A DNA stretch of 64,000 nt from an uncultured Acidobacteriota bacterium (GCA_963836075.1 CAWIIB010000009.1:224001-288000), one strand, 5' to 3'; numbered from the stretch's first letter, positions 62 through 46,922 are shown. Translations and numbers: made by a program. Notes: a model not told the origin generated them from the sequence alone.

Positions 62-3000
62 ATGATCATGAAAAATCTCGCACTGGCAATGATGCTCTTC
101 ATCCAGGCACTGGCGCCCACCATCGCCCCGGCCCAGCAGACCTTCACCGAGGACTTCAGCACCACGACCTACATGGACGCGGTCAACACCACCGCTGACT
201 GGAACACCACAGACGGCGAGTTGAAACTCCACCCGTTCGTCCTCACCCTCGCCGGATCCTATGAAGGTTCAGTTGAAGTTTGGGACGTGGCGGTGTCCGG
301 CGACCACGCTTTCATGGCCGATGATTCAGACGGCCTGCAGATCATTGACATCAGCGATCCCACAAACCCGGTACTGACCGGCAGCTATGTCACAGCAAGT
401 GCCAGAGGCGTGGCGGTGTCGGGTGATCACGCTTTCGTGGCGGCAGGGTCCTCCGGTGGCCTACAAATCATTGACATCACTGATCCCTCGAGCCCAGTGC
501 TGGCAGGCAGCTTCGACACGCCGGACTATGCCTGGGGTGTGGCTGTGTCTGGTGATCATGCTTTCGTGGCCGACGGAGCCACCGGTCTGCTGGTTGTGGA
601 CATCAGCGATCCGACGAACCCTGCACTGGCCGGCACATACAACACATTTGACTATGTCAGACGTGTGGAGGTCTCCGGCGATCACGCATTCGTACCCGAC
701 GGGAATTCCGGTCTGCTGGTGATCGATATCAGCAATCCGGCAAACCCGGCGCTGGCCGGCAGCTATGACACTCCAGGCAGTGCCCGGGGTGTGGCGATAT
801 CCGGCGATCACGCCTTTGTGGCAGACTATTCAGCCGGCCTGCAGGTAGTCGATATCAGCGATCCCACAACCCCCATTATTGCCGGAAACTATGACACCTC
901 AGGATATTCCTACGACGTGGTGGTGTCCGGTGATCGTGCGTTCGTGGCCGACTGGTCCTCCGGCCTCCAGGTAATTGATATCAGCGATCCCACAAATCCA
1001 GTACTCAGCGACAGCTACGACACGCCGGGCAATGCCGCAGCCCTGGTGGTGTCGGGTGACCACGCTTTCACTGCGGATCTGCAATACGGATTGCAGGTGA
1101 TCGAGATCAGCCAGGCCGTGAACCCCGCACTCGCCGGCAGCTGCGATACGCTGGGCTTTGCCCGTGGTGTGGCAGTGGCGGGTGATCACGCCTTCGTGGC
1201 GGACGATTTGTACGGCCTGATGGTGATCGACATCAGCGATCCCGGGAACCCCGAAATTGTCGGCTACTGCGACACACCAGACGATGCCGCTGGCGTGACG
1301 GTAGCGGGCAACCACGCCTTCGTGGCGGACGACCTGAGCGGTCTGCAGGTGATCGACATCAGTGATCCCACCAGCCCAGTGCTCTCCGGCAGCTGCGACA
1401 CACCAGGCGTTGCCGTGGGGGTGGCTGTATCGGGCGACAATGCTTTTGTGGCTGACTACTTATCCGGACTGCAGGTAGTCGACATCAGCGATCCCGCGAA
1501 CGCCTCACTGGTCGGCAACTACGACACCCCAGGCGCGGCCTATGACGTAACCGTGTCTGGCGACCACGCCTTCGTGGCAGATCTGACAGGCGGCCTGCAG
1601 GTGATCGATATCAGCGATCCCACAAACCCCGTACTCGCCGGCAGCTGTGACACACCAAACAGTGCCCGAGGCGTTGCGGTGGCGGGCGACCACGCCTTCG
1701 TGGCAGACCTGACATCCGGCCTGCAGGTGATCGACATCAGTGATCCCGCGAACCCCACGCTCGTCGGCAGCTTCGCCACACCAGACGATGCCGGCGGTGT
1801 GGCGGTAGCGGGCGACCTCGCATTCGTGGCGGCGTGGCAAAGCGGCCTGCTTATGATCGATATCAGCGATCCTACGAACCCCATGCTCACCGGCAGTTAC
1901 GATACGTCAGGCCAAGCCGAAGGCGTGACGGTGTCAGGCAATCACGCCTTCGTGACCGATGGGTATTCCGGCCTGCAGGTGATCCAGGTGAGCCAAAGCG
2001 AGGTCGATGCTTCGCAAAACATCGGTCAGTCATTGGCGGTCGATGGAAATACGGAAATGATCCCCCGCACCCGCCTCTCCACCAACTTTGGAGTCACAGG
2101 TGTGGGTTGGGAACTCAGCGCCGATGAGGGGGCGAACTGGACAGCGATCACGTCAGACGACTCCTGGACACGGATCGCGACTCCCGGGGATGACCTCCGG
2201 TGGCGCTCAACCCACACCTGGTTACCGGGCGTCAATCCCACGGTCTCGTATCTGAGGATTAACTGGCTAAACGAGTTCGGGCCGATCAACGGGATCACCG
2301 ACGTACCTGACGATCAGGGTGGCTGGGTGCGTATCTACTTCACCCGCTCGGGCTATGACTTCGCCGACGAGCCCAGCCTGCCCGTGACCGGCTACTACGT
2401 TTGTCGACTCGTTGATTCTCCCGTGCTCACGACCCTGATCGGGGATGCCGAAGCACATGCTGCAATCGCATCTCCGAAACTGTCCTCCGGAGAGGACCTG
2501 TTCCCCTGGCCCCTGCCAGAAATGAATGCCACTCGAATCGAGGACCGGTTCTTCGTACGGGCGCCGGCTTCCGCAACTGATCGAGCCGGCACGTTCCCGC
2601 CTGGCACCTGGGAGGTGGTGGCCTCCGTGCCGGCATACCAGTTGGACAACTATCTGGTAAATGCACCCACGCTGGCCGGCACCACCACATTCCTGGTGAC
2701 CACCCACACCACCACGCCTTCGGAATGGTTCGTCAGCCCCACGGCCACCGGCGAATCGATCGACAACCTCGCCCCGGGGGTGCCGACGAATCTGCTCTTC
2801 AGCGGGCCTGAGCGAACTGAGTCTGGGACGAGGCTCCCGAACCGGATTTCGCCTACCACACAGTGTACGGCTCGGAGAACCCGGTCTTTGACCAGTCAGC
2901 AGTCCTGATCGGCTACACCATTGGCCAGACATACGATGTCTCAGGATCGCCCTCCAGTTACTACCACCTGACAACCTCGGACCATTCGGACAACGAGAGC

Positions 3001-3396
3001 GGTGCGGCGAGCGTCGCCGGCTCTTCGTCGACGGTTTCTGCCACGCTGTCCTGTCTGCCCTCATCGGGCACTCTGCCCTTCACCACCACGATCTCGGCGG
3101 AGCTGATCAACCTTTATACCGGCCAGACCCGCCGGCTTGCCGCACGGTTCGACGTATCCCTGGCCGGGGGCGGGTATTTCAGCAACTGGCGGGCCGGATA
3201 CACCAACGTGGCCGCCGGGAGCAGCTACAGCACCTCGTGGAACCAGGCCATCCCGGCGCTGGGTGCGCTGGTGGGCAGCAACCTTTTCACCCTCCGGGCG
3301 ACGGACGTCACCCCGGCGCCGTACAACCAGCCGCCCTATCCCCCGGCCGGCGACTCTGACACGGCACAGTGCACTGTGGTGGGGAACGTGCCATGA
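62..3396 (+). CDS. Secreted LVIVD-repeat beta-propeller protein with C-terminal CTD-A domain (one frameshift near 2810-2822)
   Basis: Signal peptide, then 14 ~43-aa repeats (V.VSGDHAFVAD...GLQVIDISDP.NP) and an 'ITDVPDDQGGWV...DNLAPGVP' region. The reading continues in the frame of ORF 2863..3396 (VWDEAPEPDFAYHTVYGS...) and ends in CTD-A. Confidence 0.85.
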
Positions 3397-3433
3397 GGAT
3401 CGTTCTGGAACCGGGGAGGAGGGGCTGGGCGTT

Positions 3434-4673: not shown

Positions 4674-4785
4674 ATCGATCATCATGTTGCATATATTACC
4701 GTTAATTATGCATCGCATGTAGCAATTTTCAAGAGGCAATGACTCTGGCACGATCTGGTCACCGATCACAGGTACTGGATCTATC

Positions 4786-5793: not shown

Positions 5794-5997
5794 CTACCAT
5801 CTCCTGATCCCGAACAGTCTACCTCTCCCGCCCCGCCGATTCCAGGAAGTTGACGATGGGCGATGCAGGGGTCAAAATCTATCCGGGTGATGCGATGGTC
5901 GGGCCCGACGCCCGGCGTTCATGGCCCGGATTCGGCGAATCCGTTACCTCAAACTGCGCACCGCTTCATCGCGGGTTGCAATCGCGGCAGGCACGAC

Positions 5998-6284: not shown

Positions 6285-9017
6285 TCAGAACCGCCCCGCG
6301 GCCACGGTCGCCCCGTCGGTCCACCCCGCGGGCATGGCCTGCAGGGTAAACCACTGGGCCACTCCCGCCCCGTTGTAACGATAGACCGCCACCATCGAAT
6401 CCGCCCCCTGGTCCGGCCCGGCGCCGATCACCAGTTCCGAGCGGCCGTCCCCGTCCAGGTCCGCACCGGCAAAGAGCTGGGCCCCATGGCTGTACTGGGC
6501 CGGCGGCAGGGCAAAGAAGCTGCAGCCGGGCAGCGGCGTCACCGCCGTGTCGTCGTAGTTCCATCCGCGGATATGCGGGCCGAAGACACTTGACGGACCG
6601 GGTGCGGTGATAATCTCGTCGATGCCGTCGCCGTCAATGTCGCCGCAGGCCACCCGCACGCCGTATTTCAGGGTGCCGTATGCGAAGTAGCTCACCGCCG
6701 GGATGGCTGCCGCACTGCCGCCGTCAACGTTCCAGCCCCGGACGTGCGGGCCGAACACCGCCCCCGGCCCGGCGCCGGTGACGATCTCGCCGAACCCGTC
6801 GCCGTCGATGTCACCGCAGGCCACATTGACCCCCCACTTGGGGGTGCCGTAGGCGAAGTAGCTGACACCGGGAATAGCGGAGGTGCCGGGAGGAGATCCG
6901 GTGACGTCGAAGGCCCGGACGTGAGGGCCGAAGACCGCGCCCGGCCCGGCGCCGGTGACGATCTCGTCCCTGCCGTCACCGTCCAGGTCGCCGGCCGCCA
7001 CGTTGACCCCGAACTTCAGGGTGCCGTAAGCGAAGAAGTTTACGCCGGGGAAGGACTGGCCGTTCGGCCTGAACGCCCGCACGTGGGGGCCGTAAATGTC
7101 GCCCGGGCCGGCGCCGGTGAGGATCTCGTCCAGGCCGTCGCCGTCCAGGTCGCCGGCGTGCACGTTGACCCCGTAGCGGTCGGCGCCATACGCCGTGAAC
7201 TCCAGGTCGTGAGCCGCGTCCTGCAGCGCCGGGAAAAGCCTGACCAGCGGCGGGTTGGCAATGTCGGGGCCGGCGCCGGCCAGCAGGCTGCCGCCGCCGT
7301 AGTGCACCCCGATGTCGGTGATGCCGCTGTCACTGGAACCATCGGTACGGGTGGTGCCCGAAGCTCCGCCGGCGGCCGGGTCACCGGCGTCGACACAGGG
7401 GCTGTTCACCGCCTGGCCGGCGGCGACCTGGCTGAGGTAAAAGGGCCCGCCCGGCCCGTCGACAAAGACCGGATCGGCGTCGATCATCCCTTCACCCCAG
7501 TTGAGAGTGCAGCCGGTTTCCACCTCCAGCGAGCCGATGCCGCCGTCCACGTCGCAGTAATCGATATCCAGCGAGAGGCCGAGGTCGTCGTACTCGAGGT
7601 AAATCTCCTTGCCCTCGGGTGAACTGTTGCCCCAGAAAATCCCGTGGACCACGGTGAGCGTCGTGCCTTCAGAGCAGTGGAGCCCGCCACCCCCTCCCCA
7701 GACCACGGTATTGGCCGTAATGGAGTTGTTCTCCAGGGTCAACTCCCCCCCCTGGTTGACCACAATTCCTCCCCCGCGCTGGTTGACTTCGTTGTCGTGG
7801 ATTGCATTGTTCGCCAACAAACCGCTATCCAGCTGATGGAGCCTGACGCCCCCGCCAAAGGATGCGCTGTTGTGCCCCACGCGGTTGCCCACCATCAGGA
7901 GATTGCCGCCCAAACAGTCAATACCACCGCCCGCAACCGCACTGTTGCTGTTCACCTGGTTCCGGCTGATCTCGGCTGTATGATCGGCGCTGCTGTTGTA
8001 GACATATGCAATACCGCCGCCCTCGGAGGTGGACGTGTTCAAGAGGAGGGTGTTGTCCCGAATCACGGTGTCCGACGACTGCGTGTAGATCCCGCCCCCG
8101 CTGCCGCTGGACTCGTTGCCCGTGAAAACGTTGTCGGCGATCAGCACCGAACCGGCAAATTCACAGCAGACTCCGCCCCCGTTATCAGCAAGGTTGCCGT
8201 TGAACATATTTCCCTTGATCGCCGCGGACGAGTCCTCGGCACAGCAGATCCCCCCGCCCGGTCCGGGCGTGCTGTTGCCGGCAAACACATTGTCAGAAAC
8301 CACCGGCTCCGAAGCACCATAGATATACATTCCACCGCCAGCACCGTCCGTCGAGATGCTTGTAACGTTCGAACTGAGGGTGCAGCCGGTAATCTCCGGT
8401 GAGGACTGCCAGCTGTAAATGCCGCCACCGTAATATTCCACCGAGTTGCCGGTCACGGTGCATCCCCTGACCCGGGGCTGGCCCAACATGCAGAACAGGC
8501 CGCCGCCGATATCGGCAGCATTTCCCTCGAGCACACAGTCCGTTATCAACGGCGATGCGTCAGCGCAGTAAATCCCGCCGCCGTGATTGGCGGAGTTGAC
8601 CGCCACCCGGCAGTTATCGATGGACGGTGAGGATTCGAAGCAGTAAATCCCGCCGCCGAGGGTCCGCAGTTCCACCTGGTCGAAAAAGCCGTTGCCGTTG
8701 GTCAGGGTGAAACCGCGGAGCAGTGATCCCGCCCCCTCGCCACCGCTGAAGGACACAACGCTGCCGTTCAGGTCACCGTCGATGATGGTGGACACCGGCC
8801 CCTGCAGGCTGCTCACCGTGATCTGTTTGCCGAGGAAGTCGATGTTCTCGATGTAGGTTCCCGGCCTGACCTGGATGAGGTCACCCATGCCGGCGGCCTG
8901 GATGGCCCCCTGGATGGTGGCGTGGTTGTCGGGGACATAGATGGTGGCGGCATGAAGCGGGGCCGCGAGGAAAAAGAGCAGCAGAATGGTTCCGGAGAGA
9001 TTTCGTACTGTAATCAT
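6285..9017 (-). CDS. Secreted right-handed beta-helix (pectin-lyase-like) protein with C-terminal CTD-B propeller
   Basis: Signal peptide, 'IYVP...TIQGAI...PGTYIENIDF.GK', GGGIYC/N-S-A repeats, SPCVDAGDP cap and six AYG/GVNV/GPHVR repeats. Confidence 0.85.
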   Translation of the reverse strand: MITVRNLSGTILLLFFLAAPLHAATIYVPDNHATIQGAIQAAGMGDLIQVRPGTYIENIDFLGKQITVSSLQGPVSTIIDGDLNGSVVSFSGGEGAGSLLRGFTLTNGNGFFDQVELRTLGGGIYCFESSPSIDNCRVAVNSANHGGGIYCADASPLITDCVLEGNAADIGGGLFCMLGQPRVRGCTVTGNSVEYYGGGIYSWQSSPEITGCTLSSNVTSISTDGAGGGMYIYGASEPVVSDNVFAGNSTPGPGGGICCAEDSSAAIKGNMFNGNLADNGGGVCCEFAGSVLIADNVFTGNESSGSGGGIYTQSSDTVIRDNTLLLNTSTSEGGGIAYVYNSSADHTAEISRNQVNSNSAVAGGGIDCLGGNLLMVGNRVGHNSASFGGGVRLHQLDSGLLANNAIHDNEVNQRGGGIVVNQGGELTLENNSITANTVVWGGGGGLHCSEGTTLTVVHGIFWGNSSPEGKEIYLEYDDLGLSLDIDYCDVDGGIGSLEVETGCTLNWGEGMIDADPVFVDGPGGPFYLSQVAAGQAVNSPCVDAGDPAAGGASGTTRTDGSSDSGITDIGVHYGGGSLLAGAGPDIANPPLVRLFPALQDAAHDLEFTAYGADRYGVNVHAGDLDGDGLDEILTGAGPGDIYGPHVRAFRPNGQSFPGVNFFAYGTLKFGVNVAAGDLDGDGRDEIVTGAGPGAVFGPHVRAFDVTGSPPGTSAIPGVSYFAYGTPKWGVNVACGDIDGDGFGEIVTGAGPGAVFGPHVRGWNVDGGSAAAIPAVSYFAYGTLKYGVRVACGDIDGDGIDEIITAPGPSSVFGPHIRGWNYDDTAVTPLPGCSFFALPPAQYSHGAQLFAGADLDGDGRSELVIGAGPDQGADSMVAVYRYNGAGVAQWFTLQAMPAGWTDGATVAAGRF

Positions 9018-9154
9018 GGCAACCCCCGACAATGCCTGGAGACAGCGGTCCCCTCAGCTGTGTTCGTTATTGGCAGTGGGGGTTATTCTTATGATTTATA
9101 TAGCGCTTATCTTTACCACTTGCGCAAAACCCTGTCAACCTGGGCCTGCCGGGA

Positions 9155-9813: not shown

Positions 9814-12800
9814 TCAGTTCCGCAGCCCACCCACCTTGACCCCGTGGGTCACTTCGGTGGTGCTGTAGGCATTGAAGTCGACACCGCCCAGGGCGGTGAG
9901 CGTCTGGCCGTCGTAGTTCCAGCCGCGCACCCGGGGTGCGTGGGTCTCGCCCGGACCGGGCCCGGTGATGATCTCGTCGATACCGTCCCCGTCCAGGTCG
10001 CCGCAGGAGACATTGGCCCCCCACTGGGTGTAGTCGTAGGCGAAGAAGCTCACCGCCGGGATCGACTGGGCCGAACCCGTCCCGTCCCAGTTGAAGGCCC
10101 GCACGTGGGGGCCGAACACCGCACCCGGACCGGCCCCGGTGACAATCTCGTCGATGCCGTCACCGTCGATGTCGCCGCAGGCAACGTTCACCCCAAACTT
10201 CAGTGTGCCATAGGCGAAGAAGGAGACCCCGGGGATGGACGAGGCGCCCCCGCCGTCACAGTTCCAGCCCCTCACGTGGGGGCCGTACACCGCGCCAGGA
10301 CCGGCGCCGGTGACGATCTCGTCGTAGCCGTCACCATCGATGTCGCCGCAGCTGACGTTGACCCCCCACTTGGGGGTGCCGTAGGCGAAGTAGGAGATGC
10401 CGGGGATCGACGTGGGAGTGCCGGCCCCGTCCCAGTTCCAGCCCCGCACGTGGGGCCCGAACACAGCGCCGGGACCGGCACCGGTGACGATCTCATCGTA
10501 GCCATCGCCATCCAGGTCGCCGCAGCCGACGTTGACCCCGTACTTGTTGGTGCCGTAGGCCAGAAACGAGACCCCGGGCAGCGGCGTGCCGTCGTCCTGG
10601 AACCCCCGCACGTGGGGGCCGAACACCGCACCGGGGCCGGCACCGGTGAGCACCTCCGGCCCGGCCGCACCGTCCAGCTCGCCCAGGGCCACGTTGACCC
10701 CCCAGCGGTCCACGCCGTAGGCGTGCCACTCGGTGTAGCTCCGGCCGGCGGCCACGCCGTACACCCGCACCAGGGTGGGGTTGAACTCGCCCGGGCCGGG
10801 CCCCGTGACCACGCAGGCCGGTGGGCACGAAGTCAGCAGCGTTGTTGTGCAGGATCATCAGGTCGACCCAGTAGAGCAGTGTCACCTCGGGGGCCTGGTC
10901 CCGGTCCATGTCGGCCGCCGCCAGGAAACCGTTGGCGCTGCCGGTGGTGAATGAACGGGGAGGCCCGAACCCGCCGCTCCCGTCATTGAGCAGCACCGCC
11001 AGATCTTCAGTTTCCAGCGCCAGGGACAGCAGGTCCGGAGCGCCGTCGAGATCCATGTCCGCCGAGGTGAACCGGTAGCCCGCCTCCTGGCCGGTCTCAT
11101 GGGTGACGGCAGCGGAAAAGGTGCCGTCCCCATTGTTGAGCAGCACCGAACAGACTCCCGCGTTGAAACTGGAGGTGGCCAGGTCGAGGTCACCGTCACC
11201 ATCGAAATCGTCCGAGGGAAACCCCCACCGGATCGATGCAGTCGTACCGCTGGGGCGCGGCAAAACTGCCGTCACCGTTGTTCCTCACCACCACCAGGTT
11301 GCCGCCCACCGACTCCTCCTCGTCCATCGCCGCGTCCAGGTCGCCGTCATCGTCCACGTCACCGAGGACGATGGCCGTGGCCCGGTGGGTGGCGGTGTAG
11401 TACGTGGTGGCGCCGAGAGAACCAGTCGCCGTTGTTGAGCAGGATGCCAAGCTGGGTGGAGCCGCTGCGGCAGATCACCGCTGCGTCGAGGTCGCCGTCG
11501 CCGTCCAGGTCGCCGATGGCCGCGGCCTCCGGGTTGAAGCCCACCTGGTAGTTGACCGGGGGAAGCAGCCCGCCGCTGCCGTCATTCATCATGATCGAAA
11601 TGGTGCGATCGTCGTCATCGATGAGCAGGACATCGCTGATGCCGTCACCACTCAGGTCACCGGTGGTCATACCCGCCGGGTAGATGTCGGGCTGGTAGTC
11701 CACCGGCTCGGAGAAACCGCCGGGATATTCGTTGAACAGGACCTTCAGCAGCGGGGGGTCGGGTACGTTGTCAAAGCCGACCACCAGATCATTGTCGCCG
11801 TCGCCGTCGAGATCGTCCACGGCCACCCGGTACAGATACGTCACATCAAAGGACAGTTCCTCGTGGCTGCGAAACGTGCCGTCACCGCGGCCCAGCAACA
11901 CCGCCGCATGCTGCTCCCCGGGAGGGCAGAGCATCACCGCATCGAGGTGGCCGTCACCGTCCAGGTCATCGAGGCTGATTTTTTCCCCCGGTTGAAACAG
12001 TATTCCGGTTCCCCGAATGTGTCGTCCCCGTTATTCAGTGTCACGGTTACTCTGAAATAGTTGTAGACATCATTTGCGTTGGCGACGATATCCAGGTCAC
12101 CGTCACCGTCCAGGTCACCCAGGTCCCAATCGTCCGGGTTGTTGCCAATATCGATCAGACGCTCCATGCGGAACGTCCCGTCACCGAATCCCCTCAGGTA
12201 TGAAAGCCGTTCAGCCGAGGAGAACCCGCCGGCCACAAAGTCGAGATTGTCATCGCCGTTCAGATCGGCCGTGGCCATGATAATCCGGTAGTCCCAGTCG
12301 GAGATGCTGCTTGTCGGCCCCTGGGCGAACGATCCGCTTCCATTGTTGAACAACACCGTGTAATGCTCGCCGGGGAAATCATCGTTGACGCTCACCAGGT
12401 CGAGGTCACCGTCCTCGTCGAAATCACCGCTGGTGAGCCCGTCCACCGTCCAGCCGAGCGAACTGAGCGAACCCAGCGTAAAAGTACCATCCCCCTGGCC
12501 GGTATACAGTTCCACGGTCTGCAATACGGGCACGGCCACATCGTTGACACCGTCACCGGTGAACTCGCCGATCACCAGGCTGCCGTAAATACCGGTGGGT
12601 GTCTGGCCGGCCTCGGTGAATGTGCCGTCGCCATTGCCCAGCAGTGCGGTGAAATGAAAATCCGGGTAGTTGCCGCCGCTGATCACGTCGGGATACGCAT
12701 CATCATCCACCATGGCCACATGCAGGTGGTAGGCTGAATGGAAAGAAAGCAAGGTGACCGCCGGCTCGGAAAAAGTTCCGTCACCAACGCCGAGGCGAAC

Positions 12801-13046
12801 CACAACACCATCCACCGCACCACCCTCATAGTTCCGAGCCAGGCCCACCAGGTCGGAGATGCCGTCGAGGTCGACATCCGCCGTCCGGATATCAATCAGT
12901 TCGTTCCCTCCGAGATAGAACTGCCGGGCCGTATCGAAGAGATACTCGGCAGAGCAGGGAACCGAAATCAGGTGGATCAGAGCGAGAAAAATGGCTGGGA
13001 TCAGCAGAACAGGAATCGGGCAACGGCTCATTCGCATGGCATTCAA
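9814..13046 (-). CDS. Secreted FG-GAP/VCBS repeat protein with CTD-B, paralog 1 (split by about four frameshifts)
   Basis: ORFs 11934..13046, 11359..11937, 11196..11450, 10493..11275 and 9814..10812 concatenate colinearly with the intact neighbours 13074..16280 and 16320..19490. Confidence 0.8.
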
Positions 13047-22229: not shown

Positions 22230-22637
22230 CAATACTCCTCCCAAAAGGTAACCGGAACGTGTGGAGACAGCGGGAATCGGCGGGGATATCGCTCGTTAGA
22301 CTCCCTCAACTGACTGTGGTGGGCTCCTTTATGGCCATCGTGGCCGGGAGCCCTCACTCTCATACAACAACTGTAAACAATATAGGTTATGAGCGGTTTA
22401 AAATCAACACCAAGTTTATCTTTATCGTCCAAAGTGCTTGCACCAAAAGAACAAAACACCTATTATCAGTGCTTATAAAGGTCGACGGGTACGCTGGTTG
22501 AAAGCAGTTCGCATGCCCCGAACCGTTCATACCGGCCACGGACTCCATTCCAGGTGCCCGCCATTGCCATTCCTGGCGGGCAGACCCAGGTTATGTAAAG
22601 CCATCCTTGCCATTACGTGAGAAGGAGGAGAGTGAAG

Positions 22638-31869: not shown

Positions 31870-34335
31870 ATGGGAAATAGCACAGCGAAAGACGGCCGTA
31901 GGGACCGGCTGGCGCCCCTGCTGCTGCTCCTCGTCTTCATCGTCCTCGGCGCCTGGGCCAGGCTGGTCAACGCCGGCAGCTCGGCGTCACTCTGGTTCGA
32001 CGAGGCCTGGCGGATCCAACACCTCCTCGACGCCGAATCACTGTTTCAGCAGATGGTCTCTGCTCCAAACCATATCGACCCCCCACTGTTCAACCTGATC
32101 ATCTACCTGCTGGCCCAGGTCCACAACACCGAACTGGTCCTGCGGCTGGCCTCGATCATTCCCGGCGTACTGGCCATCCTGATGGCCTGGCTGGTGGGCC
32201 GGCAGCTCTTTGCCGGAAGGTGGCTCCCCCTGTTCAGCGCCTTCCTCGTCGCCTTCTCCCCCTGGATGACCATCTTCTCCAAGGAGTTGAAGCCCTATGC
32301 TCTCGGCGTCCTGGTCCACATGACCGTTCTGTACGGGATTCTGCGCTACAGCAGGACCCCCACGGCAAGAGCCACCGCGACATTCACCGGACTGTTGATC
32401 CTCGCCCTCTTCTTTTCACCGAACATCGTCTTCGCCTACCCCGGGATCTGCATCGCCATGCTGGCCATGGCCCTGAGGACCGGCACCCGGCGGAGAATAG
32501 TCGAGGCGCTCGCCGCCGGCACGGCCCTGCTGGCCGGCTCCGCCCTCTACTACATAGCTTTTCTTCACGGCTCCGTCTACGAGCAGTCCTTCAATCCCCG
32601 GACCTCCTTATGGTTCTGCCCGCACGAAACGGTTGCCGCCGCGGTCGGCTGGTTCTTCCGCCGCTACCTGGGGTTCTACTCGAAGATGGCCTTCACCGAC
32701 TATTCGCTCTTCGAAGGCGTGGGAGCCTTCCTCGAGATCCTCTATCCGCTGATGGCGCTGGCCGGCGCGGCTCTCGTCCTTTTCTGGAGCCGCCGGCGCT
32801 TTCTCCAGCTCTTCTGCCTCTTCCTCATGCCAATCCTGGCCATGGTTCCGTTCAATATTCTCAAACTGTGGCCCTTCGGTCCCCTGCGGATGAACCTCTT
32901 CCTGATGGTCTACATCATTTTTCCGCCACTGATCCTGCTCGACCAGATACAGAGGAGCCGTTCCCGGTTTAGTCGATATGTCCCGGTGGGGCTGGCGGCG
33001 GCACTGCTGATGGCCCTGCAGTTCCCCATCCACTTCGGCGACTATTCCAGCAGCCGGGTGACCATGCGCCGATCCGCCGAAGCCGTGATCAACATCATTG
33101 AGTTCAACCCGGCTGATCCGCCGATCCCACTGCTGATCAACAGGCTGGGCGAGCCGTCCTTTACCTACTACAGCCGGCACCACCAAAAGGTGTCCAATCG
33201 TTTCGGCGCATGCGCCGGGGTGTTCGAACCTCGGGTGCTCGCCAGCCGGGACAGCCCCCTCTACACCACGGGGGAGCTGCTGCGGGAATGCCAGAAAAAC
33301 AGGCAGGTGGCCATCTACGTAAGCCAGTACAACGAGCACGACCGGCTTCTTTTCAAAAATGACTTCAGCATCGATCACCACTCATTCGACGCACGCAACG
33401 TCCACTCCTGCATCCTCCACTCGGAGATCGCGGGATACGAGGAGAGCCTGCGGCCCCTTTTCTCGAGCAAACGGTTCACCGGGGACAGCAAGGAGTGGAA
33501 GGTGATCTACCGGTCGCCTCCGCTACCGCTCACCGATCCCCAGCCCGGCGCCCTGGTGATTGTCAACTTCGATCTAACGTTCAAGTCGCGAGGAACTTCA
33601 ATCCAATTCCGGTTCATCGACCAGGACGGCTCGCCGAAACCGTTTGCACCGTCCATCATCCAGAACACCACACCGGGACTTCCACGCCGGATCGAATCGG
33701 CGGTGTACACAAAAATCAAACAGCGGCCAGGAACGGTGAGTCTGGAGATCGCAGCCAGCGGCAGCTACAATTTCCTGCTGAAGAACGTGAATTGCTTCAT
33801 GACCAGGACCGAAACTCCAAAGCCGGCCATCGGCCCCGGCACCTGCCAACTCCGTGCCGGAGACAGGACTCGAGTCCTGGGAGCGCTGACATCACTGGAT
33901 GGCTTCTGGCCTGACGATAAGCACACCTTCGGTTGGACCACGGGCGACACGCTGATCAGATTCGATGACCTGGCCGTATCCCCCGAGGACACGGTGCTGA
34001 TGCTGAAGACCTTTGGCTGGATGCCGCCCGGATGGAGAAACGAGATGAACCGCAACGGGCTTAGGGTCTACCTCAATGGCGACCGGCGGGCCCGTTTTCT
34101 GGGACCGGGAGGGGACCCGGTGCGATACTATTACTTTGAGATCCCGTCCGGAATTCATACCATCAGGACGTTGCGGATCATCTCGAACACCTTCTCGCCC
34201 AGAAAGCTGGGCATCAGTGATGATGCACGGGACCTGGGCATCGACCTGAAGTCTGTACAGTTTCCGGCAATGGCGCAAACGGCCCCCGTCCCGCGCAATG
34301 TTTCCACAGCAGGTGGAGAGAACACTCCATCATAG
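31870..34335 (+). CDS. GT-C (PMT/GT39-like) membrane glycosyltransferase with extracytoplasmic C-terminal domains, copy 1
   Basis: SLWFDEA, PPLF, LRLASII and SKELKPY motifs; multiple TM segments. Confidence 0.82.
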   Translation: MGNSTAKDGRRDRLAPLLLLLVFIVLGAWARLVNAGSSASLWFDEAWRIQHLLDAESLFQQMVSAPNHIDPPLFNLIIYLLAQVHNTELVLRLASIIPGVLAILMAWLVGRQLFAGRWLPLFSAFLVAFSPWMTIFSKELKPYALGVLVHMTVLYGILRYSRTPTARATATFTGLLILALFFSPNIVFAYPGICIAMLAMALRTGTRRRIVEALAAGTALLAGSALYYIAFLHGSVYEQSFNPRTSLWFCPHETVAAAVGWFFRRYLGFYSKMAFTDYSLFEGVGAFLEILYPLMALAGAALVLFWSRRRFLQLFCLFLMPILAMVPFNILKLWPFGPLRMNLFLMVYIIFPPLILLDQIQRSRSRFSRYVPVGLAAALLMALQFPIHFGDYSSSRVTMRRSAEAVINIIEFNPADPPIPLLINRLGEPSFTYYSRHHQKVSNRFGACAGVFEPRVLASRDSPLYTTGELLRECQKNRQVAIYVSQYNEHDRLLFKNDFSIDHHSFDARNVHSCILHSEIAGYEESLRPLFSSKRFTGDSKEWKVIYRSPPLPLTDPQPGALVIVNFDLTFKSRGTSIQFRFIDQDGSPKPFAPSIIQNTTPGLPRRIESAVYTKIKQRPGTVSLEIAASGSYNFLLKNVNCFMTRTETPKPAIGPGTCQLRAGDRTRVLGALTSLDGFWPDDKHTFGWTTGDTLIRFDDLAVSPEDTVLMLKTFGWMPPGWRNEMNRNGLRVYLNGDRRARFLGPGGDPVRYYYFEIPSGIHTIRTLRIISNTFSPRKLGISDDARDLGIDLKSVQFPAMAQTAPVPRNVSTAGGENTPS

Positions 34336-34382: not shown

Positions 34383-36818
34383 ATGGAAAACGCCCCAGCG
34401 AAAGACGGCCGTCTGGACCGGCTGGCGCCCCTGCTGCTGCTCCTCGTCTTCATCGTCCTCGGCGCCTGGGCCAGGCTGGTCAACGCCGGCAGCTCGGCGT
34501 CACTCTGGTTCGACGAGGCCTGGCGGATGCAGCGCCTGCTCGACGCCGACTCACCACTTCGCCAGCTCTTCTCCCCGCCGAACAACATCGACCCCCCGCT
34601 GTTCAACCTGGTCATCTACCTGCTGGCCCAGGTCCACAACACCGAACTGGTCCTGCGGCTGGCCTCCATCATTCCCGGCGTACTGGCCATCCTGGCAGCC
34701 TACCTGGTGGGACGGCAACTGTTCGCCGGCAGGTGGACGGCGCTGCTGGCCGCGTTCCTTATCGCCTTCTCGCCCTGGGCCACCATCTTCTCCAAGGAGC
34801 TGAAGCCCTACTCGCTGGGTCTGCTGGTCCACCTGTCGGTCCTCTACGGCGTTCTCTGGTTCCAGCAACGGCTCACCCTTCGCTGGACCGCCGTGCTCGC
34901 CGTGACCCTGCTCCTCTCCCTTTTCTTTTCGCCAAACATCGTCTTCGCCTTCCCCGGCATCTGTATCCTCATGCTCTGGACGGCCTGGGAGAAGAAGGAC
35001 CGGAAGCTGTTCAGAGGGACGCTGGTCGCCGGGACAGTCATGCTGGCCGGATCCATCCTCTACTATGCCCTGCTGCTGCAAGCCCCGGGCGGCGAAGACT
35101 CCTTCGACCCGCTGAAACGCTACTGGCAGGACCACTTCTGCCCGGCAGGGTCGTTCACCGCCACCGTCTCCTGGTTTTTCCAGCGCTACCTGGCGCTCTA
35201 TGACAAGATCTCGTTCGCCAACCACTCCATGTTCGACTGGGCGGGTGATGTCCTCAAATCCCTCTACCCGCTGATGGCGCTGGCCGGCGCACTGATCGTC
35301 CTGCTGCGCAGCCGGCGGCAGTTCTTCAAGCTGTTCTGCCTCTTCCTGCTGCCGGTGCTGGTGATGGTGTCGTTTAACCTCGCCGGCCTCTGGCCCTTCG
35401 GGCCCCTGCGGATGAATCTCTTCCTGTTGGCCTACGTGCTGTTTCCGTCTTTGCTCCTGCTGGACCAGTGCCAGAGAGTTCGGCCCTGGAGGAACAGTTT
35501 TCTTCCGGTGGGTCTGGCGGCGGCGCTGCTGATGGCCCTGCAGTTCCCAACCGATTTTGACGACTTCGCCAGCCGGCGGGTGATACAGCGGGATTCGGCG
35601 GGTGTGCTGACCGGCCTCATCGAATCAGAACTGGAAGAGCAGCCGGCTCCCCTGCTGGTAAGCTGGCCCGGTAAGCCGTCCTTTGTCTACTACACCCGGT
35701 ATCATGAAACGGTGTCCCCGCTCTTCCGGGAAGAGGGGAAGAAGTTCAAGCCGATCATTCTTCGCGAACGGGACAGCCGGCTCTACACCAACGGGATGTT
35801 GCTGCGGACATGCCAGGAGCACCGGCAGGTGGCCACCTACTGCGACCACTACAATAATATCGACCAGCTGCTCTTCCGCAACGATTTCAGTGTCACGCAC
35901 CAGCTGTTCGACGGGGACAAGGTCCGCGCCTGCATCCTGCACTCGGAACTCACCGGCTACGAGGACGTGAAGAAACCGCTCTTTTCGTCGAAATGGTTTT
36001 CCGGGAGGAGCGAAAAGTGGAAGAACCTCTACATCTCCCCGCCGCTGCCGCTGGGCAACCCGCCACCCGGCACCCTGGTGGTGGTCAACTTCGACCTGAA
36101 ATTCAATTCCGACGAAAAGCTGATCCGCTTCCGCTTCTTCGATCAGGACGGCTCGCCGAAAAACCTCGATCACCCCTTCATCGAGAACAAGATCAGCCGT
36201 ATCCCGAGACGGCTCAAGTTGGCGGCACACACCAGGCTCCGGGAGCCGGTGGAAGCGTTCCGGCTGGTGCTGGCGGCCCGCGGCACATACGACTTCGTCA
36301 TCGATAATGTCACCTGGTTCATCACCCGGCCCGCGGAGGAGAGGCCGGCGGTGGCACAAGGCACCTACCGCCCCCGGCCCGGCGACCGGTGGAACGTGTT
36401 CGGGAAGGTGGACACGCTGGAACAGTTCTGGCCCGACGCCGACCAGAGCTACGGCTGGACCATGGGTGACGCGCTGATCCGCTTCGACGACCTGGCGGTG
36501 TCCCCCGAGGACACGGTGCTGATGCTGGAAACCCACGGCTGGATGCCGCCCGGATGGAGAAACGAGATGAACCGCAACGGGCTGCGGGTCTACCTCAATG
36601 GCGACCGGCGGGCCCGATTTCTGGGGCCGGGAAGCGACCCGGTGCGATACTATTACTTTGAGATCCCGTCCGGCATTCATACAATCAGGACGTTACGGAT
36701 CATCTCGAATACCTTCTCGCCCAGCAAGCTGGGCGTCGGTGTCGACGCGCGGGACCTGGGCATCGACCTCAAGTCGGTGCAGTTCCCAATAAAGGCGGAG
36801 ACGGCACCGGCGGCCTGA
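34383..36818 (+). CDS. GT-C (PMT/GT39-like) membrane glycosyltransferase, copy 2
   Basis: Full-length paralog of 31870..34335 with the same motifs. Confidence 0.82.
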   Translation: MENAPAKDGRLDRLAPLLLLLVFIVLGAWARLVNAGSSASLWFDEAWRMQRLLDADSPLRQLFSPPNNIDPPLFNLVIYLLAQVHNTELVLRLASIIPGVLAILAAYLVGRQLFAGRWTALLAAFLIAFSPWATIFSKELKPYSLGLLVHLSVLYGVLWFQQRLTLRWTAVLAVTLLLSLFFSPNIVFAFPGICILMLWTAWEKKDRKLFRGTLVAGTVMLAGSILYYALLLQAPGGEDSFDPLKRYWQDHFCPAGSFTATVSWFFQRYLALYDKISFANHSMFDWAGDVLKSLYPLMALAGALIVLLRSRRQFFKLFCLFLLPVLVMVSFNLAGLWPFGPLRMNLFLLAYVLFPSLLLLDQCQRVRPWRNSFLPVGLAAALLMALQFPTDFDDFASRRVIQRDSAGVLTGLIESELEEQPAPLLVSWPGKPSFVYYTRYHETVSPLFREEGKKFKPIILRERDSRLYTNGMLLRTCQEHRQVATYCDHYNNIDQLLFRNDFSVTHQLFDGDKVRACILHSELTGYEDVKKPLFSSKWFSGRSEKWKNLYISPPLPLGNPPPGTLVVVNFDLKFNSDEKLIRFRFFDQDGSPKNLDHPFIENKISRIPRRLKLAAHTRLREPVEAFRLVLAARGTYDFVIDNVTWFITRPAEERPAVAQGTYRPRPGDRWNVFGKVDTLEQFWPDADQSYGWTMGDALIRFDDLAVSPEDTVLMLETHGWMPPGWRNEMNRNGLRVYLNGDRRARFLGPGSDPVRYYYFEIPSGIHTIRTLRIISNTFSPSKLGVGVDARDLGIDLKSVQFPIKAETAPAA

Positions 36819-42393: not shown

Positions 42394-42395
42394 CA

Positions 42396-42500
42396 TGTCA
42401 TCGCGAGGAGCCGCAGGCGACGTGGCGATCTCGTGACGACAACCATTTCATTTTCACGAGATTGCCACGTCGACGACTCCGTCGTCTCCTCGCAATGACA
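42396..42500. repeat. Long palindromic REP/RPE-type element between convergent genes
   Basis: TGTCATCGCGAGGAG...CGACGTGGCGATCTCGTGA-loop-TCACGAGATTGCCACGTCG...CTCCTCGCAATGACA. Confidence 0.8.
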
Positions 42501-42507
42501 GGTGCCC

Positions 42508-44199
42508 CTATGGCGCGTAAGCCTCCACCGTCGCCACGCTGCTGCAGGTGTCGCCGGCCGCCGGGTAGGGCGGCTGGTTGAACGGCGCCGGGGTCACGTC
42601 TTCGGCCACCAGGGTGAAGGTGTTGACCCCCACCAGCGTTACCAGGGCCGGCAGGCTCTGGAACCAGTTCCTGGTGAAGCTGTCTTCGGGCTGGATGTTG
42701 GTGTATCCGGCCCGCCACCCGGGGAATGTGTTCCCGTTGGCCAGCTCCACGTTGAGTTTCGCGGCCATCCGCCGGGTCTGATCGGTGTACAGATTGGTCA
42801 GGCTCACCGTCATACTGACGGTGAAGGGCAGGGTGCCGCTGGCCGGGTTGATCGTATAGTCACACCCCAGGGTGCCGCCGGCACAGAGCGTATCGCCGAG
42901 GGAGAGGTGCACCTCGTAGTTGTCGCTGGTGGTGCCGTTGAACTCGTTCCAGACCGCCACCCAGGTGCCGTCGGCCATGGTGGCCACGTCGGGCCGGTAG
43001 CCGTTCTCACCGTCGGGGAAGCTGATCAGTTCATCGGCGGTGGAACCGCTCCAGGTGGCGCCGCCGTCGGTGGACGTGGAGACCATGATCTCAGTGCTTC
43101 CCCCGCCGATGGGCTCCTCGTCCCAGACCACCGTGACGTTGCCGCACTGGTCGGCGGCGATCTTGGGGTAGAAGGCCGAGTTGTCGCCCGAGCCGGACTC
43201 GTAGCTGATCATCCGTTCGGTGGAGGCGCCGCTCCAGGTTACCCCGCCGTCGGTGGAGTGCGTGTGGTAGGCCTCGTAGTGGTAGGGGGACGCGGTCTCG
43301 TCCGAGGCGTACCAGACCAGGTGGATGTAGTCGTTGGAATCGATGCAGAGCCGCGGCAGGGACGCGATGTTGAACAGCGTGCTCACCGGGGTCTCGGCAC
43401 TGGTGCCGCTCCAGGTTACCCCGCCGTCGGTGGACTTCGTCACATACATCTGGCTGCCCACTCCGGTTCCCAGGTACTTCTTGTAGGAGACCCACAGGGT
43501 GCCGCTGGAATCGACGTCGATGTCGGCGTTGGCGTTGCTGAAACTGTCGCCAAGCCAGGAGATCACCTGGTCGCCGCCGGTGACCGCGCTCCAGGTGGCG
43601 CCGCCGTCGGTGGAGCGGGTGTAGTGGATCTTGGCCGTGGCAGTGGTGGCCTCGGTCTTGTTGTAGACCACGTGGATCGTGTCGTCGAGGTCGGCGATGA
43701 CCGCCGGGTAGTTGCTGGTGGCGTCCTGCAGCGGGTCGCTGATCACCACGTCGGCCGCGGTGCCGCTCCAGCTGGCCCCGCCGTCGGTGGAATAGCTGAG
43801 CATGATCTCGTTCATGCCCGAGGGCTCGGGCTCGTCCTCGCTCCAGACCACGAAGAGGTTGCCCGCGCTGTCGATGGCGATGTCGGAAGTGTCGAAAACG
43901 CCTTCACCGTCGTTGAAGCTGATCAGCGTGTCCGAACTGCTGCAGCTCCAGGTGGCGCCGCCGTCGGTGGAATAACCGTAGTGGATCTCGTCGTAAAAGG
44001 GGTCGTCCTCGGACCAGACCACGTGGATCACGCCGCTGCCGTCCACGGCCAGCCGGACGTAGCTGGCGTATTCGTTGTCGTCGAAGCTGATCTGCTGGTC
44101 GGCGACGGTGCCGGTCCAGGCGGCCTGGGCCGCCGGGGCGGAGACGAGGACGGCCAGGGTCACGGCCGCCAGGAGAGAGAGAAGACGGGTGGTGCGCAT
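42508..44199 (-). CDS. Secreted BNR/Asp-box (sialidase-like) beta-propeller protein with CTD-A
   Basis: Signal peptide, six STDGG.TWS Asp-boxes, C-terminal CTD-A; SD AAGGAG. Confidence 0.88.
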   Translation of the reverse strand: MRTTRLLSLLAAVTLAVLVSAPAAQAAWTGTVADQQISFDDNEYASYVRLAVDGSGVIHVVWSEDDPFYDEIHYGYSTDGGATWSCSSSDTLISFNDGEGVFDTSDIAIDSAGNLFVVWSEDEPEPSGMNEIMLSYSTDGGASWSGTAADVVISDPLQDATSNYPAVIADLDDTIHVVYNKTEATTATAKIHYTRSTDGGATWSAVTGGDQVISWLGDSFSNANADIDVDSSGTLWVSYKKYLGTGVGSQMYVTKSTDGGVTWSGTSAETPVSTLFNIASLPRLCIDSNDYIHLVWYASDETASPYHYEAYHTHSTDGGVTWSGASTERMISYESGSGDNSAFYPKIAADQCGNVTVVWDEEPIGGGSTEIMVSTSTDGGATWSGSTADELISFPDGENGYRPDVATMADGTWVAVWNEFNGTTSDNYEVHLSLGDTLCAGGTLGCDYTINPASGTLPFTVSMTVSLTNLYTDQTRRMAAKLNVELANGNTFPGWRAGYTNIQPEDSFTRNWFQSLPALVTLVGVNTFTLVAEDVTPAPFNQPPYPAAGDTCSSVATVEAYAP

Positions 44200-44405
44200 T
44201 GATGATCTCCTTATGCTGTTTCGTATCTGAAGGGTGTGAGAACAACCTGGTGCAGGTAATTCCTGTATAGATAAACATAGTTCCATCGGAGCAGGCCGTC
44301 AACGAAATATTCGCTTTTCAGACAACTATTCATTGCCTTTTCACCTCGATTCATGGACTATTTCCTTGTACGGTACAGATCAAACCTCAACAGGAGGTGC
44401 TCCCC

Positions 44406-46922
44406 ATGACAAATTCACCGAAATCGACGGTCAGGCCCCGGCTCCCCTTCCCGCTGCTTCTGGCCATGGCCGTGACGATCCTGTTGGCCCTGCCGGCGGC
44501 CGCCGGAACGACACCGGCGGCGAAACAGCTCACCGTCTTCGAAACCATCGACCAAATGGAAGCCAGCGGCGAGATCGAGTGGGACCGGGCGCTGCTCTAC
44601 CGCTGCCAGGCCTACAAGCAGCGGGACAAGCTGCCGCCGGAGCTGGCCGGACTCCCCTACCCCGAAACGTTCGTCTGCCCGCTGGAACTCTTCATCAGAG
44701 CTCGGAAGGAGATGGACCGCTGCAGCCCGGAGATCAGGACACAACTGATGGACCTCCGCTCCCGGCCCGACTCCATCGGATTCGTTCAGTCATCCATCGC
44801 CCCCCTGCGGGTCCACTACGAAACAACCGAACAGATCCCGCTGGCCGAGGAGTTTCTCGGTCATGCCGAGCAGTTTTACCGCTACTTCGTCGACGTGGCC
44901 GGTTTCTACGACACCCCACCCGACGACAACCGCGGCGGCAGCAACGACTACGACATCTACATCGACACTTACAGCTATGCCGGGATCTACCCCGAAGACG
45001 ACTGGGAGGACTCCTGGTGGTCGGACCTCCGTTCCTACACCTTCACCCAGCCCGACGGCCTCATAAACCTGATCTCCACCATCGGCCACGAGCTGAACCA
45101 CGCCCACCAGCTGGCGATGAACTGGGGCTCGGCCACCTGCTTCTTCGAGGCCACCGCCACGATCATGGAGGACTACGCCTACCCCGAGGGGGACTGGATC
45201 AACGACATGCTGCCCCCGTTTATCCAGGGCCGGCCCTACAAGCCCATCGACTGGCACGAGGGCGGGGGCCAGCCCTACCAGTACGCCGCCTTCATTTTTC
45301 CCAAGTTCCTCGTCGAGTATTACAACAACAACGAGATCCCCATGGTGGGCGAGATCTGGCAGGAAATGGTCCAGGAGGGGATATGGGGCGAGCCGGACCA
45401 TCTCGATGCCATCGAGACGGTGATCGCCAGGTACGGGCCGGAGACCTTCGACGAGATGTTCCGCATTTTCACTAACTGGCGCTGGTTCACCGGTGAGCAC
45501 AACGACGGCCAGCACTACGACGAAGCCGACGAATACGTCTCCATCACCCTGGAGGCCGATTACAGCGCCGGGGCTTTCCCGCTCAACGGCGCGGCGGTGG
45601 CCGAGCCGCCGGCCGAGTACGGCAGCAGCTTTGTGCGCTTCGAGGGCGGCGGGCCCGACACCTGCGCCCTGCACTTCGACGGCGATCCGGACAAGGCCTG
45701 GTCGGTGCAGCTGATGCTCTTCCCCGCCGGCGGCGGCGACCCGTCATACGAGATGCTGGAACTGGACGGGGAAGGATTCGGCAGTCATGTGATCAGCGGG
45801 TGGAACGCGATCGACAGCCTGGTGATGTCGACGATCAACCTCGGCGACGGCGACCACGACCCGGAGAGCTTCGACTGGGACCCGTCCCACTACCGCTATG
45901 CCGCGGTCAACGGCGGCCAGCAGGTGCCGAGCATCGTGGCCGGTCCCGGACCGGGGCCCGCCAATCCGGCGCTGGTCCGCGGTTTTCACTCGAACGGGCA
46001 GCCGAACCCCTACGGCGAGTTCACCGCCTACCCCGACCAGTTCTACGGCACCAACCTCGCCTGCGGCGACCCGGACGGCGACGGCGTTGACGAGATCCTC
46101 ACCGGCGGCGGGCCGGGACCGGACATACTTCCGGAGGTGAAACTCTTCGAAGCCAATGGCGAAGAGTTCCCCATCTTTGCTTTCAGCGCCTACGGCACCC
46201 CGGGCTACGGGGTCAACGTGGCCTTCGCCGACCTGGACGGTGACGGCCGGGACGAGATCCTCACCGGGCCGGCATCCACCTACGGCCCCCACGTGCGAGC
46301 CTTCCGCTACCTCGGCGGCGGCCGGGTGGAGGCGATCAACGGGACTTCGTTCATGGCCTACGGCACCCCCCGCTACGGGGTCAACGTGGCCGGGGGCGAT
46401 GTCACCGGTGACGGCCATACGGAGATCGTTACCGGCCCGGGGCCCGGGCCGGCCTACGGCCCACAGGTGCGGGTCTTCGACGGCCAGGGGAACCCGATCT
46501 TCAACAGCTTTTTCGCTTACGGCACCCTGCGCTGGGGGGTAAATGTCTGCTGCGGTGATATCGACGGCGACGGCATGGATGAGATCGTCACCGGCGCCGG
46601 GCCGGGCGCGGTCTTCGGCCCCCACGTCCGCGCCTGGGAATTCGACGGCTCGTCGTCGTTCGTCCCGATCCCGGCGGTGAGCTACTTCGCCTACGGCACC
46701 CTGCGCTATGGCGTGAATGTAACCTGCGGGGACATCGACGACGACGGCATGGACGAGATCGTCACCGGGCCCGGTCCCTCTGCGCTCTTCGGCGCGCACA
46801 TCCGCGGCTGGAACTACGACGGGGACGTGCTCACCCCCATCCCCGACTGCAGCTTCTTCGCCTTCTCCCCGGCCGCACTGCGTCACGGCGCCAAGGTGGC
46901 GGTGGGCCGGTTCCGGGAATAA
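44406..46922 (+). CDS. Secreted HExxH metalloprotease (MXAN_6640-like) with CTD-B
   Basis: Signal peptide, PPDDNRGGSNDYDIYI, GHELNHAHQ...FFEATATIMED, six-repeat GPHVR module; SD AGGAGG. Confidence 0.85.
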   Translation: MTNSPKSTVRPRLPFPLLLAMAVTILLALPAAAGTTPAAKQLTVFETIDQMEASGEIEWDRALLYRCQAYKQRDKLPPELAGLPYPETFVCPLELFIRARKEMDRCSPEIRTQLMDLRSRPDSIGFVQSSIAPLRVHYETTEQIPLAEEFLGHAEQFYRYFVDVAGFYDTPPDDNRGGSNDYDIYIDTYSYAGIYPEDDWEDSWWSDLRSYTFTQPDGLINLISTIGHELNHAHQLAMNWGSATCFFEATATIMEDYAYPEGDWINDMLPPFIQGRPYKPIDWHEGGGQPYQYAAFIFPKFLVEYYNNNEIPMVGEIWQEMVQEGIWGEPDHLDAIETVIARYGPETFDEMFRIFTNWRWFTGEHNDGQHYDEADEYVSITLEADYSAGAFPLNGAAVAEPPAEYGSSFVRFEGGGPDTCALHFDGDPDKAWSVQLMLFPAGGGDPSYEMLELDGEGFGSHVISGWNAIDSLVMSTINLGDGDHDPESFDWDPSHYRYAAVNGGQQVPSIVAGPGPGPANPALVRGFHSNGQPNPYGEFTAYPDQFYGTNLACGDPDGDGVDEILTGGGPGPDILPEVKLFEANGEEFPIFAFSAYGTPGYGVNVAFADLDGDGRDEILTGPASTYGPHVRAFRYLGGGRVEAINGTSFMAYGTPRYGVNVAGGDVTGDGHTEIVTGPGPGPAYGPQVRVFDGQGNPIFNSFFAYGTLRWGVNVCCGDIDGDGMDEIVTGAGPGAVFGPHVRAWEFDGSSSFVPIPAVSYFAYGTLRYGVNVTCGDIDDDGMDEIVTGPGPSALFGAHIRGWNYDGDVLTPIPDCSFFAFSPAALRHGAKVAVGRFRE

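Follow-up and report, generated by a model that had tools for sequence, protein, structure and literature searches.

The window considered here is a stretch of 64,000 nucleotides, analysed over its full length (G000:C9:224001-288000), from the genome of an uncultured member of the Acidobacteriota; the assembly holds 6.23 Mb in 10 contigs and is 94.7% complete. Ten genes in the window code for proteins with diverse N-terminal domains and two kinds of C-terminal tail, here called CTD-A and CTD-B (CTD, C-terminal domain). An earlier note on this DNA had described ten secreted proteins that each carry one of two shared modules, and all ten are indeed present: four terminate in CTD-A and six in CTD-B. 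N-termini that resemble signal peptides, as judged by eye, are found in 10/10 of these proteins. In all-against-all BLASTP comparisons the copies within the window are 46-83% identical for CTD-A and 48-89% identical for CTD-B. The G+C content ranges from 0.52 to 0.66 across the window.

CTD-A, about 125 amino acids (aa) long, is the tail of an LVIVD, a trypsin-like, an M28 and a BNR protein. The LVIVD-repeat (choice-of-anchor B) protein (62-3396, + strand) has a signal peptide, matches Pfam LVIVD at 2.2e-173 and is a member of TIGR04312 above threshold (138.9 bits, cut-off 100). One frameshift at about 2863-2908 divides its gene into an open reading frame (ORF) at 62-2908 and another, in a different frame, at 2863-3396; the latter encodes CTD-A (3016-3393), which ends in GNVP directly before the stop. 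The trypsin-like serine peptidase (19678-22244, - strand) is followed by a BACON-like immunoglobulin (Ig) domain, a MAM/choice-of-anchor-J-like domain and CTD-A (19681-20058), with Pfam matches to Trypsin_2 (7.6e-5) and BACON_2. An M28 aminopeptidase (22617-25190, + strand) is built in the same order from a BACON-like Ig domain, a MAM-like domain and CTD-A (24813-25187). The choice-of-anchor model NF038128, like TIGR04312 a family known to occur with differing C-terminal anchors, gives 27-28 bits with both the M28 and the trypsin-like (S1) protein, slightly below its cut-off of 30. The fourth carrier is a BNR/sialidase-like propeller protein with a signal peptide (42508-44286, - strand; CTD-A 42511-42888).

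The six CTD-B genes code for two beta-helix proteins, three FG-GAP proteins and a putative metalloprotease. The first beta-helix protein, of NosD/PMP-like type (6285-9032, - strand), has a signal peptide and CTD-B at 6288-7307; the second (26787-29244, - strand), also with a signal peptide, has one frameshift near 28950 and a CTD-B at 26790-27818 that is followed by a short tail. Two intact FG-GAP/VCBS proteins, both with signal peptides, lie side by side on the minus strand, one of 1068 aa (13074-16280; CTD-B 13077-14090) and one of 1056 aa (16320-19490; CTD-B 16323-17336). Adjoining them is the third FG-GAP gene (9814-13046, - strand; CTD-B 9817-10812), which is in five frame pieces separated by four frameshifts; a tblastn search with the 1068-aa paralogue recovers these pieces in frames -3/-2/-3/-1/-2, and its CTD-B is 89% identical to the adjoining copy. 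The sixth carrier is a HExxH (MXAN_6640-like) putative metalloprotease with a signal peptide (44397-46922, + strand; CTD-B 45912-46919) that matches NCBIfam NF045524 at 8.5e-26, under the cut-off of that model.

Thus 4/10 of the genes, those for the LVIVD, the trypsin-like, the third FG-GAP and one beta-helix protein, are broken by frameshifts in the assembly. The trypsin-like gene has two single-base frameshifts, near 21435 and 21542. These look like assembly indels, since the contigs of three public metagenome runs, from sediment and salt marsh, are one base shorter than the window at 21434/21435 and at 21542, and since an intact relative (L055) is 73-78% identical to the protein through both breaks, over three frames. 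At 3707, 21434/21435, 21542 and 22242 the window differs in length by a single base from metagenome contigs of three or four runs; the site at 3707 falls within an AAA_14/DUF4143 gene.

Both tails are far more abundant in the genome than the window alone would suggest. Hidden Markov models built from the window copies were run over all six-frame ORFs of the genome, an ORF being counted as a strong CTD-B carrier at a score of at least 200 bits. There are 229 matches to CTD-A in 228 ORFs; the distance to the stop is at most 10 residues for 212/229 and at most 25 for 219/229 (median 0). CTD-B is found in 135 ORFs and ends no more than 10 residues before the stop in 123/135. Not one ORF carries both modules (0 among 217 CTD-A and 135 CTD-B ORFs), so that the terminal and mutually exclusive placement noted earlier in the window is a property of the whole genome, and the modules are not confined to this locus as recent duplications. 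The genes are dispersed over both large contigs as interleaved clusters of A and B carriers, and roughly 350 proteins, or about 8% of gene-sized ORFs, bear one tail or the other. Copy number and positions of this order are far beyond chance or local duplication. A crude signal-peptide rule was positive for 131/179 CTD-A and 83/134 CTD-B proteins, as compared with 92/400 background ORFs. In the better-assembled genomes of two sister species the same rule was positive for 45/58, and several of the 13 misses are obvious signal peptides after non-ATG starts.

CTD-A has no counterpart among described sequence families. The four window copies match 0 Pfam families even at E<=10 (PF18962, PKD, CARDB and PPC included), and the module matches no NCBIfam model at E<=0.01 and 0 PDB sequences at E<=1. 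The predicted structure, modelled from an alignment of 24 copies, is an eight-strand beta-sandwich with a pLDDT of 95.9. Its nearest folds are generic sandwiches of the Ig or fibronectin type III (FnIII) kind, namely the FnIII domain of RbmA (Z 12.2), transglutaminase barrels, CARDB and PKD, the last two at a Z of about 10, a degree of similarity common among beta-sandwiches. The T9SS (type IX secretion system) CTD is absent among the matches listed in the fold searches. Look-alikes in the ESM Atlas comprise unnamed clusters (0.90-0.91) and CARDB (0.86-0.88), and these serve as leads only. Two features of the sequence are conserved. A Pro-rich loop, DVTPAPYNQPPYPPxGDT, is near-invariant, and the last residues are Ala-Pro in 119/203 full C-terminal copies, with Pro as the final residue in most others. 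Cysteines in the first and last strands, Cys12 and Cys118, occur both together in 120 of 176 copies, both absent in 25 and singly in 31; this pairing fits a disulfide in an exported domain, with the reservation that the count overstates the support because paralogues are not independent. Ahead of either tail, analysis of the linkers showed neither a stretch of low complexity nor a cleavage motif that is conserved.

The fold of CTD-B is not new. The module is an array of about 338 aa with six FG-GAP repeats, a known repeat family (Pfam PF01839/PF13517), and FG-GAP or FG-GAP_3 matches were obtained for 6/6 window copies and for 38/40 further ORFs scanned. Five of the six repeats in the consensus contain integrin-type DxDxDG motifs, and integrin alpha chains in the PDB show a weak sequence match (about 1e-5). 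The model, with a pLDDT of 90.9, has 24 strands arranged as six predicted four-strand blades; among the closest folds are integrins, the lectin PVL, which is itself of FG-GAP type, UmbA4, which binds glycopolymers, and designed propellers with six blades. The final residue is Phe in 48/109 copies. The reading of the earlier note, a candidate new sorting or assembly system built on two shared modules, is supported in part. For CTD-A, no match to a characterised family turned up, whether of sorting or of carbohydrate-binding domains, and CTD-B consists of known repeats forming a whole predicted six-bladed propeller, no small tag. Neither module is described in the literature within the libraries searched, nor did three peptide motifs of CTD-A lead to a paper there. 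Judged by that literature, by source names and by the searches of Pfam, NCBIfam and PDB sequences, CTD-A is an undescribed domain family, and CTD-B is a known repeat family in an unusual use, as a fixed interchangeable tail.

The passengers of the two tails overlap widely. Among 58 complete CTD-A proteins of the sister genomes there are 14 peptidases (4 C25 with a gingipain-type propeptide, 4 S8, 3 M14, 1 M28, 1 M23 and 1 trypsin-like), 1 peptidylarginine deiminase (PAD) of Porphyromonas type, 6 proteins of BNR/sortilin type, 6 beta-helices and 3 FG-GAP proteins; 5 fall into other families, and 23 are without a Pfam family. The 40 CTD-B proteins surveyed in the source genome include 13 peptidases (C25, M14, S8, C11, C1, M1, S41 and S9), 1 Porphyromonas-type deiminase, 10 beta-helices, 3 sortilin-type proteins and 8 without a passenger family. 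Pfam families common to both tails are C25, PAD_porph, M14, S8, sortilin/BNR and beta-helix. When the tails are trimmed, a homologue that bears CTD-B is found at E<1e-20 for 86/163 passengers of CTD-A; identity in the best pairs across tails reaches 94% over 361 aa and 73% over 690 aa. There is also a tandem duplicate, two adjoining genes with passengers that are 71% identical and tails that differ. Since near-identical passengers, and the same families, carry either tail, the tails behave as exchangeable 3' cassettes.

The gingipain family illustrates this well. Peptidase_C25 gives 25 matches in 22 loci of the source genome, with CTD-A at 13 of these loci, CTD-B at 5 and neither at 4. The best-scoring C25 protein (L169:9242-11986, - strand, 914 aa) has its C25 domain at the extreme C-terminus and no CTD. 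This CTD-less peptidase was considered as a putative sortase; its neighbours are housekeeping genes, and the proposal found no support.

The occurrence of the tails is narrow in phylogeny. CTD-A is present in 3/41 related genomes, those of the three species of the genus, each of which has it more than 100 times, and is absent from 38/38 genomes of the other families of the phylum. Full-length CTD-B (E<=1e-60) is present in 3/401 genomes of the phylum, the same three-genome genus; one further genome gives weak FG-GAP matches only. A motif scan for CTD-A over species genomes (185,579 species, one genome for each) yielded 124 confirmed stretches, the best 80 of which represent 78 loci, all within two metagenome-assembled genome records; in those loci 85/85 ORFs have CTD-A at the stop. 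The CTD-A profile matches 508 of 1.84 billion representative proteins at E<=0.001, and among the best 150 of these, 16 of which come from the source genome, the module is at the end in 147. In a collection of 5.8 billion proteins there are 253 CTD-A matches, with source names that cover the passengers only (gingipain R, hypothetical protein, subtilisin-like). For CTD-B, 8,000 candidates from public metagenome proteins were scored and 3,896 of them match at E<=0.001; the full cassette is not implied for all of these. Metagenome contigs from freshwater sediment, salt marsh and marine sediment match the window at 90% identity or more, and in each metagenome run 87 to 384 matching records are at least 99% identical to it. 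Long contigs of equal length recur among the matches to both modules; in other assemblies CTD-A and CTD-B probably sit on the same long contigs and so would travel together. The distribution resembling that of sorting or anchoring domains, which had been proposed from the window, is thus seen genome-wide, in both sister genomes and in other assemblies, on diverse passengers whose N-termini resemble signal peptides.

The reading preferred here, with modest confidence and on the strength of sequence comparisons and predicted folds, is that CTD-A and CTD-B, both specific to one genus, act at the C-terminus as alternative address or anchor modules on about 350 Sec-exported proteins of the bacterium, many of them peptidases. 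It is favoured because the tails are terminal, occur once in a protein and exclude each other, because their last residues are conserved, and because high copy number, unrelated passengers (choice-of-anchor families among them), exchange between passengers and co-restriction to the genus all point the same way. After Sec export, a partner would recognise the tail rather than the enzyme, and would then either pass the protein over the outer membrane or hold it at the cell surface or in the matrix. CTD-B would probably serve as an anchor, dependent on calcium, of a lectin-like or ligand-binding kind; CTD-A would probably be read through its conserved Pro-rich loop and free Ala-Pro C-terminus. 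By analogy with the type A and type B CTDs of the T9SS, two tails would probably mean two destinations, and the cell may benefit in that hydrolases in large number, peptidases among them, stay cell-associated in sediment. A bolder version, in which the tails belong to a two-address system of outer-membrane export and anchoring, an independently evolved analogue of the T9SS, in a genus where searches lacking a positive control detected none, with its own translocon, shuttle or sortase, is drawn by analogy and is offered tentatively, as possible and on balance doubtful.

Several observations weigh against the address or anchor reading. The fold of CTD-A is that of a generic Ig/FnIII/CARDB-type sandwich, and many such sandwiches on secreted hydrolases are mere spacers or substrate binders; a lectin-like propeller such as CTD-B could likewise target a substrate and not the producer's own envelope. 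Placement is not perfect: 10/229 CTD-A matches in the genome lie more than 25 aa away from the stop, and 3/150 of the public representatives carry the module internally and 8/150 in two copies. Terminal placement may also stem in part from duplication of the 3' cassette, the signal-peptide calls rest on eye or on a crude rule, and the cysteine count suffers from the dependence among paralogues mentioned above. Nor has a receptor come to light. The window holds no translocon or scaffold gene, just as the earlier note had stated, and when the 19 largest CTD-less ORFs of the genome were compared with Pfam, no scaffold with repeated receptors emerged, three of these ORFs having no family. Enrichment of neighbour families around 277 CTD genes likewise gave no candidate receptor; the enriched neighbours are antisense ORFs, frameshift-split passengers, TPR kinases and CHAT proteins (weakly), and a dockerin-bearing beta-helix family. 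The extracellular multi-enzyme complex proposed earlier is purely inferred, and with no scaffold among those 19 ORFs it gains nothing from the present analysis.

The cell itself is diderm, and secretins, Omp85/TamB and TolC-type proteins are encoded; a type II-like route over the outer membrane therefore exists. Two proteins of 2189 aa (L139, G000:C9:2267510-2274076) and 2178 aa (L140, G000:C9:1011951-1018484), each a single open frame with TamB, POTRA and Omp85 domains, would be two copies of a TamB-TamA-like fusion. The genome also contains genuine dockerins, which are proteins separate from the CTD-A and CTD-B carriers: 8 Dockerin_1 ORFs score above cut-off, 7 of them with the domain C-terminal, mostly on beta-helix proteins beside CTD genes. 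Four cohesin matches were found, one of them fused to a secretin. This protein of 834 aa (L170:3992-6496, - strand, or G000:C1:2169994-2172519) has TPR, FecR_C, Secretin_N, Secretin (392-558) and Cohesin (705-804) domains, and its gene shares an operon with those for PilM, PilN and a T2SSE ATPase. Because there are genuine dockerins and a C-terminal cohesin on a secretin, the organism, to judge from these domain assignments, already has in its repertoire a way to dock C-terminal modules to receptors of the envelope.

The most serious competitor to the address or anchor reading is that the tails are ordinary accessory modules, binding substrate or matrix or acting as spacers in the way of carbohydrate-binding modules (CBM), PKD, CARDB or PPC, and that shuffling of domains and duplication of genes carried them across the secretome of the lineage. 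The generic sandwiches nearest to CTD-A, from the FnIII domain of RbmA through transglutaminase barrels to CARDB and PKD, would suit it, as would the resemblance of CTD-B to lectin propellers, the frequency of such C-terminal domains on secreted peptidases and the fact that no dedicated machinery was found. Accessory modules, however, tend to be found in tandem and at varying positions, and here nearly all copies are at the stop (the 212/229 and 123/135 given above), one to a protein and never both. The last residues of the tails are conserved; the unrelated activities of the passengers, many of which have no enzyme family, argue against a common substrate; and about 350 copies is a number typical of sorting signals. 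Ordinary accessory modules are thus a possible explanation, and not the one to be expected.

Two further explanations were weighed. If CTD-A were a highly divergent T9SS CTD, its cargo would leave by the T9SS, and there is some likeness: a beta-sandwich at the extreme C-terminus of proteins that begin with a signal peptide, and passengers (C25 gingipain-like, PAD_porph, M14, and S8 with CarboxypepD_reg) that mirror classical cargo. The T9SS likewise has two CTD types (PMC12618676). Against this, TIGR04183, the T9SS CTD model, has 0 matches in the genome, CTD-A fits no Pfam family and hence not PF18962 at E<=10, and the core components SprA_N, SprA, PorV and GldM (PF14349, TIGR04189, NF033710 and TIGR03517) gave no match in a genome 94.7% complete; these searches, that with TIGR04183 included, had no positive control, since no control genome carries a T9SS. 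Exit through a T9SS is hardly credible. The other proposal, which the earlier note had made, is that CTD-A and CTD-B bind each other in the manner of cohesin and dockerin and so link enzymes in pairs or a network. The modules are mutually exclusive and yet always in the same genomes, and probably on the same contigs elsewhere, and A and B genes are interleaved within clusters, as binding partners might be. A single handle on each protein, however, would give dimers only and no scaffold, the numbers are unequal (217 and 135), and the presence of either tail on near-identical passengers fits alternative destinations better. No result speaks for such binding, which is very unlikely; a co-fold of CTD-B with CTD-A scored 0.00 in both runs, which is evidence neither way.

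Other known sorting signals are scarce in this organism. No exosortase (PF09721) match was obtained in the genome, and a pattern search of ORF tails gave no convincing LPXTG motif and no expanded PEP-CTERM set. The sole convincing PEP-CTERM-like tail belongs to a small protein with Gly-His repeats (G000:C9:490651-490962, + strand).

Several other genes of the window deserve mention. Two adjoining paralogous GT-C glycosyltransferases (PMT_2/ArnT-like, about 815 aa; 31870-34335 and 34383-36818, + strand) lie among the CTD genes; they might build or modify an envelope glycan. Right after the last CTD-B gene, an ORF of 344 aa (47037-48071, - strand) begins with a signal peptide and is rich in Cys in its C-terminal part; it has no Pfam or NCBIfam family. 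The region 51359-54692 codes for an extracytoplasmic-function-type sigma factor, a zf-HC2 anti-sigma factor and an ARPP-1 protein. At 56000-60000 the G+C content is lower (0.52), and a YhcG/DUF1016 nuclease gene is found there.

A C-terminal sorting or anchoring domain is a kind of element already known, and such domains have repeatedly led to new machinery: sortase was reached through LPXTG, exosortase through PEP-CTERM, and PorU and PorV through the T9SS CTD. A domain of about 125 aa with more than 200 copies in a genome and no Pfam or NCBIfam model, paired with an interchangeable propeller tail, is a good lead of the same sort. That searches of the organism turned up none of the known sorting systems, with T9SS searches lacking a positive control, adds to it. 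With three genomes that have the modules and hundreds of relatives that do not, a partner could in principle be found by phylogenetic profiling. The question bears on how abundant sediment bacteria hold their peptidase arsenals near the cell (22 C25 loci, plus S8, M14, M28 and C11 enzymes). CTD-A merits a family model of its own; otherwise these proteins will be labelled by their passengers alone.

Among the known systems, the T9SS CTDs of type A (TIGR04183/PF18962) and type B (TIGR04131) are the closest in outline. As with CTD-A, a beta-sandwich stands at the extreme C-terminus of Sec-exported proteins, there are tens to hundreds of cargo proteins in a genome with two CTD types and one tail each, and the cargo overlaps in C25, PAD, M14 and S8. 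T9SS type A CTDs are shorter than the roughly 125 aa of CTD-A, which has no sequence match to the T9SS CTD models. The second tail is here a propeller of 338 aa, and no T9SS core gene was matched, in the searches run without a positive control. The T9SS is described in the literature as a trait of the FCB superphylum or of the Bacteroidetes, in contrast to the Acidobacteriota considered here, and PMC12618676 describes separate shuttle proteins that recognise type A and type B CTDs and set the final destination.

Dockerins, which dock non-covalently to a receptor domain, are like the two tails in being C-terminal modules on many secreted enzymes. They differ in that neither CTD-A nor CTD-B matches Dockerin_1 (PF00404) or Cohesin, and in that no repeated receptor scaffold was found. 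With the FG-GAP and integrin-alpha propellers, including the fungal lectin PVL and the UmbA lectins of Streptomyces, CTD-B shares repeat models, DxDxDG loops and fold. Integrin alpha and PVL propellers are seven-bladed; CTD-B is predicted to have six blades, and it forms the fixed C-terminal cassette of at least 135 proteins with unrelated passengers. PEP-CTERM with exosortase, LPXTG with sortase and GlyGly-CTERM with rhombosortase resemble the present tails in that many unrelated passengers, including choice-of-anchor families, carry one C-terminal signal. Those signals are small, a short motif with a transmembrane helix and a basic tail, in contrast to CTD-A and CTD-B, which the models portray as folded soluble domains.

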